A stretch of DNA of 24,798 bases, from contig SKID01000296.1 in assembly GCA_007116605.1 (NCBI GenBank), positions 1 through 24,798 on the forward strand. The letters run 5' to 3'. The DNA comes from Tissierellia bacterium (GTDB lineage: Bacteria; Bacillota; Clostridia; Tissierellales; Dethiosulfatibacteraceae). The position numbers and the translations under genes are program-made. Below, piece by piece: positions 5,878 through 11,364 of the stretch; positions within the stretch are counted from its first letter, which is position 1; each line of letters begins with the position of its first letter. The notes beneath the pieces were generated by a model, which saw only the letters and a program-made list of their open reading frames with translations, searched no databases and had not been told where the DNA came from.

Positions 5878-5932
5878 GAATAAAGATTAAAAAAACTAGC
5901 CTCAGGAAAGACTAGTTTTTTAATCTTTATTC
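5878..5932 (-). terminator. Long inverted repeat, probable intrinsic (possibly bidirectional) terminator downstream of the mmd operon
   Basis: Arms GAATAAAGATTAAAAAAACTAG and CTAGTTTTTTAATCTTTATTC pair with a 1-nt bulge. On the minus strand an inner UCUU/GAGG stem closes a 4-nt loop. It lies 28 nt after the mmdB stop. Confidence 0.8.
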
Positions 5933-5960: not shown

Positions 5961-7073
5961 TTAACTAAAAAACATCAACAATACCCCTGCTGCTACAGCA
6001 GAACCAATTACTCCTGCCACATTAGGTCCCATAGCATGCATGAGCAAGAAATTTGATGGATTATTCTTTTGACCTTCTCTTTGAACCACTCGAGCAGCCA
6101 TAGGCACTGCAGATACCCCTGCGGCACCAATCATTGGATTGATTTTACCACCACTGAGTTTACACATGAGTTTACCAAACAATACGCCTGTAGCTGTACC
6201 AATAGCAAAAGCCACTAACCCTAGAGCAATAATCATTAAGGTTGAAGGGGTTAAAAACAAAGCTGCCTCTGATTTTCCACCTACAGTGATTCCAAGGAAA
6301 ATCGTCACAATATACATTAATGAATTGGTTGCTGTGTCCGCAAGTTTTGGTACCACACCTGACTCTCTGATGAGATTACCAAACATGAGCATGCCTATCA
6401 AGGCAGCTGCTGAAGGTAATAACAACACACAGAAGATAGTGACCACAATAGGAAAAACAATTTTTTCTGTCTTAGAGACAAAGCGCAATTGTTCCATCTT
6501 AATCTTTCTTTCTTCTGGTGTGGTAAGGGCACGAATAATGGGGGGCTGAATCACAGGGACTAAAGCCATATAAGAATAGGCTGCAATGGCAATGGGTCCT
6601 AGCAAATCAGATGCTAGCATGGATGTGATATACAAAGCTGTGGGTCCATCTGCGCCACCAATAATCCCAATAGAAGCTGCTTCTGGTCCTGTAAAGCCCA
6701 GTAATATGGCTCCTATAAAAGTAAAAAATATACCAAACTGTGCTGCGGCTCCTAATAGTATGCTTCTAGGATTGGCAATTAAGGGACCAAAATCTGTACT
6801 CGCACCAACACATAAAAATATGAGCGGGGGATAAATTCCTTTTTCGGTTCCTATGTATATCAATTTTAGTAGCCCATTATCTTGCATTAAACCCGACAAT
6901 GGCATGTTGACTAACAACATCCCAAAAGCGATGGGTATTAATAAATAGGGCTCGTAACCTTTGGCTACAGCAAGATATAAGAATATACACGCAATGGTTA
7001 TCATAATCAATTCTTGATAGGTGATTGCCGCATATCCTGTGCTTTGCCAAAAGTTTTGTAGTATTTCTACCAT
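5961..7073 (-). CDS. mmdB: Na+-translocating decarboxylase beta (membrane) subunit, OadB/MmdB family
   Basis: Hydrophobic 370 aa with signature motifs IGIIGGADGPT, IAIAAYSYMALVP and LMHAMGPNVAGVIGS. SD AAAGGAGG. Confidence 0.93.
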   Translation of the reverse strand: MVEILQNFWQSTGYAAITYQELIMITIACIFLYLAVAKGYEPYLLIPIAFGMLLVNMPLSGLMQDNGLLKLIYIGTEKGIYPPLIFLCVGASTDFGPLIANPRSILLGAAAQFGIFFTFIGAILLGFTGPEAASIGIIGGADGPTALYITSMLASDLLGPIAIAAYSYMALVPVIQPPIIRALTTPEERKIKMEQLRFVSKTEKIVFPIVVTIFCVLLLPSAAALIGMLMFGNLIRESGVVPKLADTATNSLMYIVTIFLGITVGGKSEAALFLTPSTLMIIALGLVAFAIGTATGVLFGKLMCKLSGGKINPMIGAAGVSAVPMAARVVQREGQKNNPSNFLLMHAMGPNVAGVIGSAVAAGVLLMFFS

Positions 7074-7086
7074 TTGGATGCCTCCT

Positions 7087-7479
7087 TTATCCTAATGTGA
7101 TTAATGCATCTCCACTACTCACACTGGCTCCTTTTGCAGCATGAATGGCACTGACCGTACCGTCCGATGGGGCTACGATTTCATTTTCCATTTTCATCGC
7201 TTCTAGGATTAATAGGATATCACCCGCTTTTACAGCTTGTCCAACAGTGACTTTCATATCAAAGACTGTTCCTGGCATCGGTGCAGATACAACTTCTCCT
7301 CCAGCAGGAGCTGGCGCAGCCTTTGATGCTGCTGGTGCAGCTTGAGGGGCTGTCTGGGCTGGTGCAGGCGCTGGGGTTTGTGTCACTGTTCTTTGGGCTG
7401 TAGGAGCGCTTTGCACACCTACTTCTTCTACTTCTACTTGATATGTTTTTCCGTTTACCGTTATATTGTATTGCTTCAT
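7087..7479 (-). CDS. mmdC: Biotin carrier (gamma) subunit of the decarboxylase, ~130 aa
   Basis: N-terminal YNITVNGKTYQVEVEE, Ala/Pro-rich linker and the biotinylation motif EAMKM. Start placed at ATG 7479, 7 nt after SD AGGAGG (ATG 7482 is possible), not at 7527. Confidence 0.9.
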   Translation of the reverse strand: MKQYNITVNGKTYQVEVEEVGVQSAPTAQRTVTQTPAPAPAQTAPQAAPAASKAAPAPAGGEVVSAPMPGTVFDMKVTVGQAVKAGDILLILEAMKMENEIVAPSDGTVSAIHAAKGASVSSGDALITLG

Positions 7480-7490
7480 CATTGATCCTC

Positions 7491-7841
7491 CTATCTCATT
7501 TGCTCTATTCTTCCCATGCGTGTCCATGACGATTCTGGATTATAGATGGGTGTAATGCTTCGAATGATTAATTTTTCTTTGGGTTTACCTGTTGCAGCCA
7601 CTATAGCGGCTGTAATGACAGCAATCAATGCTTCTTCATCTTCCTCGACTGTTGGTTTTGGTTCTATTTCAACTTTGCCTTGTGGTTCTGATTGGGCTAC
7701 CACTGGCTTTTTCTTTTCTACAAAAATAATTTTGAATAAATCGAGAATGAACGATATGGTTAATAGAGTAATAAACACTATGGCCATACTAAAGACTGTT
7801 ATGATGGCTGCCTCACCCATTTCTATGGTTGGTCCAAACAT
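7491..7841 (-). CDS. mmdD: Decarboxylase small membrane-anchored subunit (OadG/MmdD-like)
   Basis: Single N-terminal TM helix (ITVFSMAIVFITLLTISFIL), acidic linker, EALIAVITAAIVA and C-terminal WTRMGR. Position between the alpha and biotin-carrier genes matches mmdADCB order. Ends in TAG. Confidence 0.8.
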   Translation of the reverse strand: MFGPTIEMGEAAIITVFSMAIVFITLLTISFILDLFKIIFVEKKKPVVAQSEPQGKVEIEPKPTVEEDEEALIAVITAAIVAATGKPKEKLIIRSITPIYNPESSWTRMGRIEQMR

Positions 7842-7853
7842 ATAAGTCCCTCC

Positions 7854-9401
7854 TTATACAGGCATATTGCCGTGTTTTTTGGCTGGTCGAGTTTCTCTTT
7901 TGCCTGCTAGCATTTCAAAGGCACCGATGACTCGTTTTCTTGTTTCTTTGGGCTCGATCACATCGTCAATATAACCTCGTGATGCTGCAATGTAAGGATT
8001 GGCCACACGATCTGTATATTCTTGTATTTTTTCTTGCCGTTTTTCATCTGCATTTTCTGCATCGGCAATTTCTTTTCTAAAAATGATATTGGCTGCTCCC
8101 GAGGGTCCCATCACTGCTATTTCTGCTGTTGGCCATCCATATACCATGTCCGCTCCTAAGTGTCTGGAACACATAGCTATGTAGGCACCTCCATAGGCTT
8201 TTCGTGTTATCACCGTCACTTTTGGCACAGTGGCTTCTGAATAGGCATATAACATTTTGGCACCATGTCTGATGATGCCCCCATATTCTTGACCGGTTCC
8301 TGGTAAAAATCCTGGCACATCCACTAAGGTTAACAAGGGGATGTTAAAGGCATCACATGTTCTTATAAAATGAGCCCCTTTATCGGATGCATTGATATCT
8401 AAACAGCCTGCTAGTTTTGTTGGCTGACTGGCTATGACTCCGATGCTTTTGCCATTGAGGCGAGCAAAGCCTGTGATGATGTTTTCTGCATAATAGGGTT
8501 GATATTCTAAAAATTCTCCATTGTCTGACAAGGTGTGTATGACTGTCTTCATGTCATAGGCTTTGTTAGGGTTTAGGGGAACTAATTCATCTAATCCTTC
8601 ATCTATCCGGTTTAAATCATCTTCATTAGCCACCACAGGAGTTGTTTCCATATTGTTTTGTGGTATGAAGCTTAGTAAATATCGAATCTTATCAAAGCAT
8701 GCTTCTTCTGTCTCATCATAAAACTGAGCTACTCCACTCACTTTATTGTGGGTCATTGCTCCACCTAAGGCTTCGGCTGATACTTCTTCTCCTGTGACTG
8801 TCTTTATGACTTGTGGTCCTGTAATAAACATCTTTGAGGTGTTGTCTACCATAAAAATAAAGTCTGTTAATGCTGGTGAATACACTGCACCACCTGCACA
8901 TGGTCCTAGGATGACTGAAATTTGTGGGATGACTCCTGATGCAATGGTATTATTGTAAAAAATATCTCCATAGCCTTTTAACGCATCCACACCTTCTTGG
9001 ATTCTTGCACCTCCTGAGTCATTGATGCCTATGAGGGGCGCTCCCATTTTTAATGCCATTTGTTGCACTTTCACGATTTTTGCTGCATGCATCTCTCCTA
9101 ATGACCCACCAATCACCGTAAAGTCTTGGGCAAATAGGTACACTAATCTACCATTAATAGTACCATATCCCGTCACCACACCTTCTCCTGGTGCTTTTGT
9201 TTTTTCCATCCCAAAATTGACACATCGATGCTCTACAAAGGTGTCTAATTCAATAAAACTGCCTTCATCCAATAGTTTTTCTATACGCTCTCTTGCCGTA
9301 TACTTCCCATTGTCATGCTGTTTTTTGATGCCTTTTTCGCCTCCACCTAGAGCCAATACTTCTTTCTTTTCTATTAATTTGGCTATTTTTTCGTTTGGCA
9401 A
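7854..9401 (-). CDS. mmdA: Acyl-CoA carboxyltransferase, methylmalonyl-CoA decarboxylase alpha-type (TTG start)
   Basis: GKYTARERI, GDGVV-like GEGVVTGYG, DSGGARIQEGV, RKAYGGAY and C-terminal KKHGNMPV. SD AGGAGG. Clustered with Na+-pump subunits. The exact acyl-CoA substrate is inferred. Confidence 0.85.
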   Translation of the reverse strand: MPNEKIAKLIEKKEVLALGGGEKGIKKQHDNGKYTARERIEKLLDEGSFIELDTFVEHRCVNFGMEKTKAPGEGVVTGYGTINGRLVYLFAQDFTVIGGSLGEMHAAKIVKVQQMALKMGAPLIGINDSGGARIQEGVDALKGYGDIFYNNTIASGVIPQISVILGPCAGGAVYSPALTDFIFMVDNTSKMFITGPQVIKTVTGEEVSAEALGGAMTHNKVSGVAQFYDETEEACFDKIRYLLSFIPQNNMETTPVVANEDDLNRIDEGLDELVPLNPNKAYDMKTVIHTLSDNGEFLEYQPYYAENIITGFARLNGKSIGVIASQPTKLAGCLDINASDKGAHFIRTCDAFNIPLLTLVDVPGFLPGTGQEYGGIIRHGAKMLYAYSEATVPKVTVITRKAYGGAYIAMCSRHLGADMVYGWPTAEIAVMGPSGAANIIFRKEIADAENADEKRQEKIQEYTDRVANPYIAASRGYIDDVIEPKETRKRVIGAFEMLAGKRETRPAKKHGNMPV

Positions 9402-9527: not shown

Positions 9528-10715
9528 CTATATAATACCTTTTTTTATTAATTCTTCTATTTGCTTTTGATTAAAGTTTAAATAATCTTTCAAAACCGTA
9601 TTTGTGTCTTGTCCTAATTTGGGTGCCTTAACATTAATATCTAAGGGATCTTCTTTATATCTGATGGGTGTATTTGGAACTTTGAGGATGTTTGTGCCAT
9701 TCATGTAGGGTGTATCCACAATGGTTTTTCGATACTTCACTTGTTCATTGTCCAATAACTCATCAATACTATGAATTGGGCTGTTGGCAATCTTATTTTC
9801 GTCTAGCAAAATTTGCCATTCTCGTGTCGTGTTTTGAATAAAAACTTTATTGAGCAATGGTTTTAGTTCATGATAATAATGCAATCTTTTTTTGTTTGTA
9901 CTAAAGCGGTAATCGTTAATCCATTCATGCTTATTAATTAATTTGCAAAAAGATACCCACATACGATTGTTACCAATAGCCACCATAATTTCACCGTCTC
10001 TTGTCATAAAAGTCTCAAAGGGAGTAATGGATGGATGTTGATTTCCCATTTTTTCTGGCTTTTCTCCTGTTAAACTGTAACGCATGATTGGGTTTTCTAA
10101 TATCGAAACTTGACTATCCAAAATTGAGATGTCCACCATTTTACCTTGTTGTGTCTTTTCTCTTTGGTGCAAAGCGCCTAAAATCCCAATAACACCGTAC
10201 AAAGCTGCTGTCATATCCCCTATAGGAGCACCTACTCTAATTGGATTACCTGTGGCTTCTCCTGTCACACTCATCATACCACTCATGGCTTGAATCACTG
10301 CATCATAAGCCGGTTTCTTTTTATATGGACCTTCTTGGCCATAGCCCGTAATGCCACAGTAAATAATTTTTTCATTGATTAATTTCAAATGTTCATAACC
10401 CACTCCTAAGTGATTCAATACATCAGGCTTATAATTATCAATCACGATATCCGCTAATTTTACTAGTTTTTTTAAAACTTCTACACCTTCGTGTTGTCTT
10501 AAATCCAAAGTCACACTTTTTTTGTTTCTATTGACACTAATAAAGTAAGCGCTTTCTTCATTGATAAATGGACCAAAAGCTCTTGAATCATCACCCACTT
10601 CTGGTAATTCGATTTTTATTATTTCAGCACCCATGTCTCCTAGAATCATGCCACAATAAGGTCCTGATAAGCCTTGGGTAATCTCTATCACTCGTATATC
10701 TTTTAAAACAGCCAT
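9528..10715 (-). CDS. Family III CoA-transferase (CaiB/BaiF), ~395 aa
   Basis: LKDIRVIEI...GPYCGMILGDMGAEIIKIE, NRNKKSVTLDL, DIVIDNY, catalytic Asp in PIGDMTAA, APKLGQDT and terminal GII. Start moved from 10790 to ATG 10715, after SD GGGAGG. Ends in TAG. Confidence 0.93.
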   Translation of the reverse strand: MAVLKDIRVIEITQGLSGPYCGMILGDMGAEIIKIELPEVGDDSRAFGPFINEESAYFISVNRNKKSVTLDLRQHEGVEVLKKLVKLADIVIDNYKPDVLNHLGVGYEHLKLINEKIIYCGITGYGQEGPYKKKPAYDAVIQAMSGMMSVTGEATGNPIRVGAPIGDMTAALYGVIGILGALHQREKTQQGKMVDISILDSQVSILENPIMRYSLTGEKPEKMGNQHPSITPFETFMTRDGEIMVAIGNNRMWVSFCKLINKHEWINDYRFSTNKKRLHYYHELKPLLNKVFIQNTTREWQILLDENKIANSPIHSIDELLDNEQVKYRKTIVDTPYMNGTNILKVPNTPIRYKEDPLDINVKAPKLGQDTNTVLKDYLNFNQKQIEELIKKGII

Positions 10716-10727
10716 AAATATCCTCCC

Positions 10728-10771
10728 AAAAAACAAAAACAAGAAAACGGTTAACCATTCGCTTGTTTCTT
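10728..10771 (-). terminator. Intrinsic terminator/attenuator in the 5' leader of the CoA-transferase gene
   Basis: mRNA AAGAAACAAGCGAAUGG-UUAA-CCGUUUUCUUGUUUUU forms a ~16-bp stem with one mismatch and G-U pairs. It is followed by GUUUUUU and then directly by the SD GGGAGG. Confidence 0.75.
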
Positions 10772-10864
10772 CTCTCTTTATTCTATGCAAGCATCGTCAC
10801 ATTAAATTTCTATATCAACTAAAAATACGGGTGGTCCCTGTAAACTCTATTCTCTTTCTCTCTA
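10769..10864 (-). promoter_or_regulatory. Candidate HutP-type RNA binding sites (NAG arrays) in the leader
   Basis: UAG-AAUA-AAG-AGAG-AAG (10785-10769; 4-nt spacers, last triplet inside the terminator stem), UAG-AGAGA-AAG-AGAA-UAG (10864-10847) and UAG-UUGAUA-UAG between them. The hutP-like gene is immediately upstream. Confidence 0.55.
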
Positions 10865-10885
10865 TATGCACAGTTTCCACTTCTA

Positions 10886-10914
10886 AAACTAGCACATTGT
10901 TACTAAAATGTCAA
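10886..10914 (-). promoter_or_regulatory. Strong sigmaA promoter driving the attenuated leader
   Basis: Perfect TTGACA (10914-10909), 17-nt spacer, extended -10 TGc-TAGTTT (10891-10886). Confidence 0.7.
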
Positions 10915-10917
10915 TGG

Positions 10918-11364
10918 TTAAATGTTAACATATCCCATGCCTAGGCGGCTATGATTTGATAAAACATGAAATGCTGAATTACCATACATAGAAACCGCTA
11001 TCCAGTGTTGACTACTGACTATCGCCATTTTGATATGTAAATTAGCATCTAAAGGCATATCTAACATCAGTCCTCTTGCTGCTTCCTGAGCAGCATGGAT
11101 TAGACCATGTATTTGATGTGGAGTTTTATTGATGACTTCAAGATTTAGTGCAGCTCCTACGCATGAGTTAATAATCTTCTTTTTTAATTCACGCCCGGAG
11201 CCTGCAACTTCTGTAACAACCACTCTATGATTTGTTTCTTCCATAAATGCTTTTGCAATGGTTTCATTTGATTTACTTTCAAGCATAGAAATAAAAACTG
11301 CTGCTTTCCCAATATCTATTTGCCCATCTTTACTAATCATTTCTCTGATAAAGTCTTTATTCAT
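10918..11364 (-). CDS. hutP: HutP-family RNA-binding transcriptional antiterminator, 148 aa
   Basis: IHGLIHAAQEAARG and WIAVSMYG...NHSRLGMGYVNI align by eye to B. subtilis HutP (SHALYHATMEALHG; WIAVSLYG...EHETFGVGINHI). Same length. Family-level call only: no hut catabolic genes are in the window. Confidence 0.85.
   Translation of the reverse strand: MNKDFIREMISKDGQIDIGKAAVFISMLESKSNETIAKAFMEETNHRVVVTEVAGSGRELKKKIINSCVGAALNLEVINKTPHQIHGLIHAAQEAARGLMLDMPLDANLHIKMAIVSSQHWIAVSMYGNSAFHVLSNHSRLGMGYVNI

Follow-up and report, generated by a model that had tools for sequence, protein, structure and literature searches.

The closest described relative of the system considered here is HutP of Bacillus subtilis (PDB 1wmq, 1vea and 2gzt), which acts on the terminator RNA between hutP and hutH in the hutPHUIGM operon. 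The activated HutP hexamer binds three NAG triplets per face, and its two RNA sites flank a G-C stem, with a linker of 12-20 nucleotides (nt) (PMC2425495); each NAG cluster comprises three triplets with short spacers of 2-4 nt (PMC2425495, PMC12591593). Only hut operons of Bacillus are listed for HutP in a 2025 review (PMC12591593), and in the literature that we searched, no paper links HutP to decarboxylases, describes HutP paralogs or reports a leader of the type presented below. Here we analyse positions 1-24,798 of contig SKID01000296.1 (24,798 nt; hereinafter, the window) from the Tissierellia bacterium assembly GCA_007116605.1, a soda-lake metagenome-assembled genome (MAG; 71% complete, 378 contigs, 1.88 Mb). 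In this window, a 202-nt gap separates a divergent HutP-family (PF09021) gene, the product of which we denote HutPx, from a coenzyme A (CoA)-transferase gene. Comparative analysis makes it likely that this gap holds a HutP-type antitermination switch, in which HutPx would bind two arrays of NAG triplets and open the leader terminator of a five-gene CoA-transferase/Na+-decarboxylase operon.

The regulator and its candidate leader

The minus strand carries all genes of interest, and every element named in an initial annotation of the locus was found on it in its place. HutPx matches Pfam PF09021 over profile positions 1-127 of 128 (E = 3.4e-32; 111.8 bits, cut-off 25), and the six best PDB matches of its AlphaFold2 model (pLDDT 82, pTM 0.80) are all HutP structures (probability 1.00, TM 0.57-0.65, 21-23% identity). 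By profile and predicted fold, HutPx is a true member of the HutP family. In a profile alignment (1vea/1wmq), its residues H86, H90 and H138 correspond to His73, His77 and His138 of B. subtilis HutP, which we take to be the metal-binding residues of that protein; the aligned triad is invariant in 13 members of the HutPx branch, and E94, aligned to E81, is nearly so.

The initial annotation had called the gene hutP-like, which holds for the family and the fold, but HutPx belongs to a separate branch and scores below the cut-off of the NCBIfam HutP equivalog NF002838 (26.6 bits, cut-off 155); a phmmer search against PDB chains gave no match at E<0.01. The genome carries a second PF09021 gene, on contig C25 directly 5' of a hutH-like gene, the product of which is a canonical HutP (151.6 bits on the equivalog model; phmmer E 1e-33 to 1e-34 against the solved HutPs). 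HutPx is 30% identical to this paralog and lacks two of its loops (13 and 5 residues). Nor is its gene in a hut context: CoA-transferase and decarboxylase genes follow it, and the hutH-like gene adjoins the other paralog. By these sequence comparisons, HutPx is a paralog from a separate PF09021 branch rather than a HutP orthologue, and 'hut operon positive regulator' is a wrong annotation for genes of its type.

Immediately downstream of the HutPx gene lies a promoter that had been described as perfect. The TTGACA box, the 17-nt spacer and the TG extension are present, and the layout TTGACA-N17-TGnTA..T recurs in all orthologous leaders, just past the regulator stop codon except in G009 (see below), but only 3 of the 6 positions of the -10 hexamer agree with TATAAT, which is why a consensus scan did not list this promoter. 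Transcription is expected to start near position 10879, giving a leader of about 165 nt. The first and last NAG arrays of the initial annotation, here termed sites I and II, stand exactly where it had put them, and the intervening UAG-N6-UAG, although present, is not conserved among relatives and is probably not part of the switch. Over the 151 nt of leader used for the count, there are three NAG-N4-NAG-N4-NAG triples (hereinafter, N4-N4 triples), compared to 0.17 in dinucleotide shuffles (P = 0.003). The linker between sites I and II is about 50 nt in the window (about 52) and 45-75 nt in relatives.

The leader ends in an intrinsic terminator with a U-tract that abuts the Shine-Dalgarno (SD) sequence of the CoA-transferase gene, as the initial annotation had it. 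The 69-nt terminator region folds at -16.7 kcal/mol (z = -2.58), and in its minimum free energy fold site II pairs with the distal U-tract, a pairing likewise foreseen from the sequence; the 3' arm and the tail are U-rich and contain no AG. A simple terminator scan missed this hairpin because it has too few G-C pairs.

Conservation and genomic distribution of the leader

Of 16 further genomes in the same bacterial family, 7 encode orthologues of HutPx (75-80% identity), among them that of the cultured type strain Dethiosulfatibacter aminovorans DSM 17477; assemblies from public runs encode such orthologues as well. A metagenome scan for close relatives yielded one locus; further loci came from a protein cluster search and contig look-ups. 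The set examined comprises ten distinct leaders, each preceding a CoA-transferase gene, and one from genome G009, 11 in all; the regulators across this set are 76-80% identical.

These leaders are mostly unalignable outside the NAG arrays and the terminator, and the stretch between the arrays varies in both sequence and length. Site II shows the exact N4-N4 spacing in all ten distinct leaders and in that of G009, with its last G 1-4 nt 5' of ACA(A/G)GC; all 11 leaders keep its AG dinucleotides in phase, with variable spacers and with each of the four bases occurring as the N of the middle triplet. Where UAGAG-NN is repeated three times, as in several leaders, the NAG motif can be read in two registers. 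The UAGAG-rich upstream array also recurs, with an exact N4-N4 triple in seven of the ten distinct leaders and 3-5-nt spacers in the others; within one genus, four leaders place it in the loop of a 9-10-bp stem whose sequence is not the same from leader to leader. The initial annotation had suggested checking orthologous leaders for conserved NAG spacing and stem covariation: the former is what the alignment shows, fully at site II and in seven of ten cases at site I, but the terminator is near-invariant, without compensatory double changes. The outcome that it had named as refuting, namely, loss of the NAG arrays despite a preserved hutP-transferase linkage, is not seen in these leaders.

Two further elements are shared. 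The pentamer GCUUG stands 5' of site II in 11 of 11 leaders, and its complement in the terminator 5' arm, CAAGC, is CAGGC in three of them, which keeps U-G pairing; no compensatory change affects this helix among the 11 leaders. Taken alone, the GCUUG/CAAGC helix is worth -3.4 to -4.6 kcal/mol, compared to -15 to -24 for the terminator segment, and it may be a weak antiterminator helix, which would enclose site II in a loop of 22 nt. In the terminator, all 130 cells of 13 pairs are paired in ten leaders, the four variable pairs changing on one side with pairing kept; the arms are nearly invariant and the hairpin loop varies. The abutment of SD and U-tract is specific to the genus of the window, the Dethiosulfatibacter group having about 55 nt between terminator and SD. 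At two more remote loci (L053 and L054, regulators at 59% identity), the order regulator-promoter-leader-CoA-transferase is kept; their terminator differs in sequence and has NAGs within its 5' arm. A third such locus (L052, 62% regulator identity) has a promoter, a NAG-bearing leader and a different terminator 3' of the regulator gene, after which the contig ends. A different hairpin and U-tract occupy the equivalent place at all three.

The genome of origin contains 0.147 N4-N4 NAG triples per kb per strand. A scan of the 1.88-Mb assembly for a NAG triple abutting a stable hairpin and a T-run gave three matches, namely, the leader described here, the leader 3' of the canonical hutP beside hutH on C25, and a site on contig C85 that we rejected, as it is antisense within a 747-aa open reading frame. 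The assembly has only two intergenic sites of this kind, each after one of its only two HutP-family genes; the search for other NAG-plus-terminator leaders and hut genes outlined in the initial annotation accordingly brings up one more intergenic site, after the canonical hutP beside the hutH-like gene. A covariance model of site II and the terminator has one strong match per genome (75-100 bits), only in regulator-carrying genomes. Its remaining matches are weak (E>=8.7e-4); one of these, in genome G001 (E 8.7e-4), was considered as a regulon member and turned out on inspection to be an ordinary terminator. In G009, an unrelated gene for a large secreted protein comes after the regulator gene, and the leader lies 8.7 kb from the regulator, past the terminator of that gene, with the same promoter and a UAGAG-NN x3 array, directly 5' of the CoA-transferase gene. 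This arrangement indicates that the leader belongs to the operon and that the protein can act in trans. In seven genomes of the sister genus, neither regulator nor leader was found.

It could be argued that a riboswitch, a small RNA or some RNA-binding protein other than HutPx controls the leader and that the gene neighbourhood is coincidental synteny. Conservation of the terminator and its 3' arm far past the needs of a hairpin could reflect such a partner, and leader and regulator gene are not adjacent in G009. We nevertheless hold this to be improbable. Rfam 15 at the gathering threshold has 0 matches across the whole window, there is no conserved multi-helix fold outside the arrays and the terminator, and the gene for TRAP (PF02081), an NAG-reading protein, has no match in five genomes of the group, although the B. 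subtilis control was positive. Moreover, regulator, leader and operon co-occur in the family, and regulator and leader are jointly absent from the sister genus; the only other such site of the genome follows its other HutP gene; and HutP-like genes are paired with GA-rich terminator leaders again in distant phyla. The proposal of the initial annotation, a HutP-type switch gating a non-histidine operon, therefore draws support from the conserved NAG triples and terminator, from co-occurrence, from genome-wide uniqueness and from the lack of TRAP and of a matching Rfam family.

Several observations concern the same loci and their relatives. Downstream of the canonical hutP (146 aa) on the minus strand of C25 (L003:2876-4983) come a promoter-like site of its own, a GAG-N4-UAG-N4-UAG triple, the first two triplets of which overlap a UAG-N6-UAG reading, a hairpin of -23 kcal/mol and the hutH-like gene. 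Two candidate HutP-type switches hence coexist in this genome, and one may ask what prevents cross-talk between them. For a related gene of the sister genus, a CoA-transferase homologue (L129, G011:C161:1-2500; N-terminus 57% identical), control is solved differently: upstream of it lie a gene for a sigma-54-dependent activator, a terminator and a -24/-12 promoter of sequence TGGCAT-N6-TGCAT. In the G009 lineage (L019:4448-4972; also L005 and L063), a tandemly duplicated element of ~190 nt lies 3' of the regulator gene, each copy ending in a G+C-rich terminator and the pair lying upstream of a gene whose secreted product exceeds 1150 aa; the element resembles a tandem riboswitch or attenuator. 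Public runs were searched for RNA (the source soda-lake DNA run and two metatranscriptome runs), and coverage of the locus consisted of one 21-nt piece and one 166-nt contig at 11295-11460. Contigs with HutPx-type genes often break ~75-375 nt past the gene (L009, L013, L015, L016, L052 and L062), and those of the source run are cut at 10685-10879; the AT-rich, repetitive leader seems hard to assemble and hence hidden in several MAGs.

Operon content, proposed mechanism and alternatives

The unit downstream of the leader consists of five genes with a single closing terminator (Table 1). As judged by sequence, the last four genes encode a four-subunit Na+-translocating acyl-CoA decarboxylase. 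This layout supports a switch that would gate the CoA-transferase together with all four decarboxylase subunits, an extension that the initial annotation had offered as a possibility. The nearest solved relatives of the CoA-transferase are dicarboxylate CoA-transferases, namely, SUGCT (9br6, E 6e-89) and YfdE, and it falls below the cut-offs of the NCBIfam succinate-glutarate, mesaconate and oxalate CoA-transferase models. The operon content fits a closed cycle, in which an acid and an acyl-CoA would yield a dicarboxylyl-CoA that is decarboxylated back to acyl-CoA with export of Na+. Given this content and the malonate decarboxylase genes linked to more distant relatives of HutPx, our best guess for the effector is malonate, methylmalonate or a related short dicarboxylate.

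Table 1. Features of the HutPx locus (window coordinates)
Feature	Position	Strand	Details
Divergent HutP-family gene, HutPx	10918..11364	-	148 aa; Pfam PF09021; presumed trans-acting RNA-binding regulator
Operon promoter	10886..10914	-	-35 TTGACA 10914-10909; 17-nt spacer; extended -10 TGc-TAGTTT 10894-10886 (TG 10894-10893, hexamer 10891-10886)
Upstream NAG array (site I)	10838..10864	-	UAG-N5-AAG-N4-UAG 10864-10847, overlapping GAG-N4-GAG-N4-CAG (exact N4-N4 register) 10854-10838
UAG-N6-UAG pair	10810..10821	-	Present, not conserved
Conserved GCUUG	10788..10792	-	Complementary to CAAGC 10765-10761 in terminator 5' arm
Terminator-proximal NAG array (site II)	10769..10785	-	UAG-N4-AAG-N4-AAG; ends 1 nt 5' of terminator stem
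Intrinsic terminator	10728..10768	-	13-bp hairpin 10768-10737 (5' arm 10768-10755, loop 10754-10751, 3' arm 10750-10737); U-tract to 10728
SD and start codon of CoA-transferase gene	10713..10727	-	GGGAGGA 10727-10721; start codon ATG 10715-10713; directly 3' of U-tract
Family III CoA-transferase, first operon gene	9528..10715	-	PF02515, E 8e-122
mmdA-like carboxyltransferase	7854-9401	-	Pfam Carboxyl_trans; TIGR01117 mmdA 926 bits, cut-off 999
Gamma/delta-like subunit	7491-7841	-	Pfam OAD_gamma
Biotin carrier	7087-7527	-	Pfam Biotin_lipoyl
Beta subunit	5961-7073	-	Pfam OAD_beta; TIGR01109 Na_pump_decarbB 493 bits
Decarboxylase genes together	5961..9401	-	Four-subunit Na+-translocating acyl-CoA decarboxylase by sequence
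Operon-closing terminator	5890..5921	-	14-bp stem and T-run; 40 nt past beta-subunit stop codon

In the mechanism that we propose, transcription from the conserved promoter would stop by default at the leader terminator, just 5' of the ribosome-binding site. Because the U-tract abuts the SD, there is no room for another promoter and each transcript reaching the operon passes the terminator, which would make 'off' the default state. HutPx loaded with its effector, and probably with a metal at the His triad, would bind the two arrays of three NAGs at their 7-nt spacing. As site II ends at the foot of the terminator, the bulky bound protein could strip the lower stem and hinder folding of the hairpin, so that RNA polymerase would read into the operon. 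The GCUUG/CAAGC helix possibly closes site II into a loop and helps binding; weak by itself, it could be stabilized if the RNA runs round one face of an oligomer, as in the HutP complex. For HutPx, we infer RNA binding, the direction of control, the oligomeric state and the effector.

This scheme shares with that of B. subtilis HutP the fold and Pfam family, the aligned metal histidines, the position of the regulator gene upstream of its targets, an intrinsic leader terminator and two three-NAG clusters with 4-nt spacers, matching the in-vitro optimum UAG-N4-UAG-N4-UAG; relief of default termination by the liganded protein is presumed here. The differences are nonetheless substantial. HutPx is only 21-23% identical to the solved HutPs, and its targets are CoA-transferase and Na+-decarboxylase genes instead of hut genes. 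The initial claim of the same architecture as hut does not hold: past the regulator gene, the leader starts from a separate promoter, and the hairpin has both NAG clusters on its 5' side, separated by a linker of ~50 nt (~45-75 nt across leaders), whereas the hut sites flank a G-C-rich stem at 12-20 nt (PMC2425495). The triplets are mostly embedded in a UAGAG unit, and histidine cannot be assumed as the effector. In the HutPx branch, the positions aligned to Tyr69, Arg88 and Arg98, presumably the histidine-pocket residues of HutP, are P/A/G, L and I, respectively, the alignment being uncertain in the loop.

The comparison with TRAP (MtrB) and the trp leader of B. subtilis raises the converse option, that HutPx binds the same NAG arrays but promotes termination, the liganded protein being the 'off' state. 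Both systems would read repeated (G/U)AG triplets to decide between terminator and antiterminator, and TRAP is a terminating protein that uses NAG repeats (PMC2425495). Furthermore, site II lies inside the possible GCUUG/CAAGC antiterminator loop, where binding could disturb the helix. However, at -3.4 to -4.6 versus -15 to -24 kcal/mol, this helix leaves termination as the default, a state in which there is nothing for a negative factor to turn off; induction is typical of catabolic operons such as this one; and the characterized family member, HutP, is an antiterminator (PMC2425495). TRAP also differs in fold and geometry, being an 11-mer ring that binds 11 triplets (9-11 repeats) with 2-3-nt spacers, binding of which causes termination, as opposed to arrays of three triplets each with 4-nt spacers. 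We therefore regard TRAP-like control as even less probable than control by another factor. A last reading, in which the hairpin terminates the upstream unit (FabK-like, DUF2177 and regulator genes) and the AG-rich stretches are compositional noise, has in its favour that the hairpin is the first terminator past the regulator gene, with none between stop codon and promoter, but is refuted by the sequence comparison: with the U-tract against the SD of the next gene, the operon could never be transcribed, a conserved promoter stands 5' of the hairpin in every leader, the upstream gene in G009 has its own strong terminator followed by the promoter-leader-terminator unit, and the NAG triples outnumber those of shuffled sequence and keep their phase across 11 leaders.

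Antitermination by HutPx remains the preferred reading, and several points weigh against it. It relies on comparative sequence evidence and a predicted fold, and the way in which binding would block the hairpin with both arrays on its 5' side falls outside the known hut mechanism. Site I lacks the exact N4-N4 spacing in 3 of 10 leaders, and no exact N4-N4 triple is present in either of the two more distant leaders (59% and 62% regulator identity). The terminator shows no compensatory double changes in ten leaders because it is nearly invariant, and conservation this strong hints at a further constraint on it. The HutPx branch also departs from HutP at the aligned positions R88 (L), R98 (I), T99 (K) and E137 (N), presumed to contact histidine or RNA in HutP. 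As for the effector, the guess is based on gene neighbourhood, and since methylmalonyl-CoA mutase genes are present in 5 of 5 genomes checked, a role of the operon in succinate-to-propionate conversion is possible.

A more specific scenario can be put forward, although we consider it rather unlikely in its entirety. The decarboxylase-linked HutP branch might sense malonate or a close dicarboxylate that chelates the metal of the His triad and open the terminator by clamping a 21-nt NAG loop closed by a short helix, and the operon might constitute a minimal two-enzyme, Na+-pumping malonate-to-acetate cycle composed of CoA transfer and malonyl-CoA decarboxylation. If so, the HutP fold would have a ligand class other than amino acids. 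A cycle of this kind has reportedly been inferred biochemically for Sporomusa malonica; to our knowledge, it has never been assigned to genes.

The wider decarboxylase-linked branch

A scan with the branch alignment, taking one genome per species, gave 32 loci, about two thirds of which carry Na+-decarboxylase genes and none of which carries hutH. Distant relatives (32-42% identity) reside in mad- or mmd-type clusters of Bacillota, Fusobacteriota and Spirochaetota. Complete Malonomonas-type malonate decarboxylase clusters, encoding an OAD_beta-like MadB, a biotin ligase, MadA, an acyl carrier protein (ACP), MadC and MadD, are found in Acidaminococcaceae, Clostridium, Neobacillus, Tepidibacillus and Selenomonadales; mad-type decarboxylase genes are also present at the Ilyobacter locus and at one Spirochaetota locus, and other loci combine an M42-peptidase gene with mmd-type sets. 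The leaders of the branch contain terminators with a GAG/UAG-rich 5' arm or flank, and their AGAG density is 1.21 per 100 nt on the sense strand versus 0.19 on the antisense strand, a sixfold difference. In a maximum-likelihood tree, all 45 decarboxylase-linked proteins fall on one side and the canonical paralog on the other (support 82/91); for the CoA-transferase-linked clade, support is 100/100.

The mad-linked genes thus share with HutPx the PF09021 branch, GA-rich arrays over the 5' side of leader terminators and biotin-dependent Na+-translocating decarboxylases as targets. By contrast, they serve the ACP-type malonate decarboxylase (MadA, ACP, MadC/D and MadB), their products being 32-42% identical to HutPx; their repeats are mostly GAGAG-like and less regular than the clean period-7 UAGAG triples of the HutPx clade; and they often come as two paralogs, compared to one regulator at the window locus. 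Regulators of the MdcR/MdcY type are DNA-binding LysR/GntR transcription factors that control malonate decarboxylase operons at initiation. If the malonate guess is right, their role would be a related catabolic one, but they bind DNA and do not act by RNA-binding attenuation, and none is encoded beside the operon of the window.

Several distant loci have two HutP-like genes (L026:1023-4399, L036:988-4447, L044:3887-4909 and L047:3971-5096), which are either tandem neighbours or have madB and a biotin ligase gene between them; the paired Spirochaetota copies are the closest relatives of each other in the tree, and mixed oligomers of such copies are conceivable. In Proteiniborus-like and other Tissierellales and Oscillospiraceae (L033-L035, L045, L038, L046 and L042-L043), the HutP-like gene is paired with a gene of the M42 (glutamyl-aminopeptidase) family, and in most of these genomes mmd-type decarboxylase genes also adjoin; the Proteiniborus group has a 315-nt leader with a long-range terminator 5' of mmdA. 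In Neobacillus (L032:1918-2522), two successive similar terminators (GGGAUAA..UUAUCCC and a U-run), each after GAG-rich sequence, lie upstream of madB and may form a tandem attenuator. More broadly, of 401 genomes that sample the phylum, 256 have PF09021 matches. None of the 30 genes with the highest scores (L087-L116; about 140 aa, E about 1e-50) has a hut or decarboxylase gene as neighbour; at the two loci scanned (L103:1468-2308 and L104:1480-3379), a type I chorismate mutase gene comes next, followed by a cytidylate kinase or anthranilate synthase gene, and these genes may represent a third, very common branch of the HutP family tied to aromatic amino-acid genes.

HutP has been treated in the literature as the regulator of one operon. 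The loci described here indicate that several phyla have put its fold to use in at least one further pathway, with an RNA code, NAG triplets at a 7-nt period, that looks similar to that of hut and a different geometry relative to the terminator. The reach of the HutP mechanism and the small molecule sensed by a non-histidine member of the family are directly testable, and the presence of a cultured type strain in the clade, D. aminovorans DSM 17477, makes experiments feasible. The same holds for the question of how anaerobes switch on their Na+-pumping decarboxylases, enzymes whose regulation is little known.

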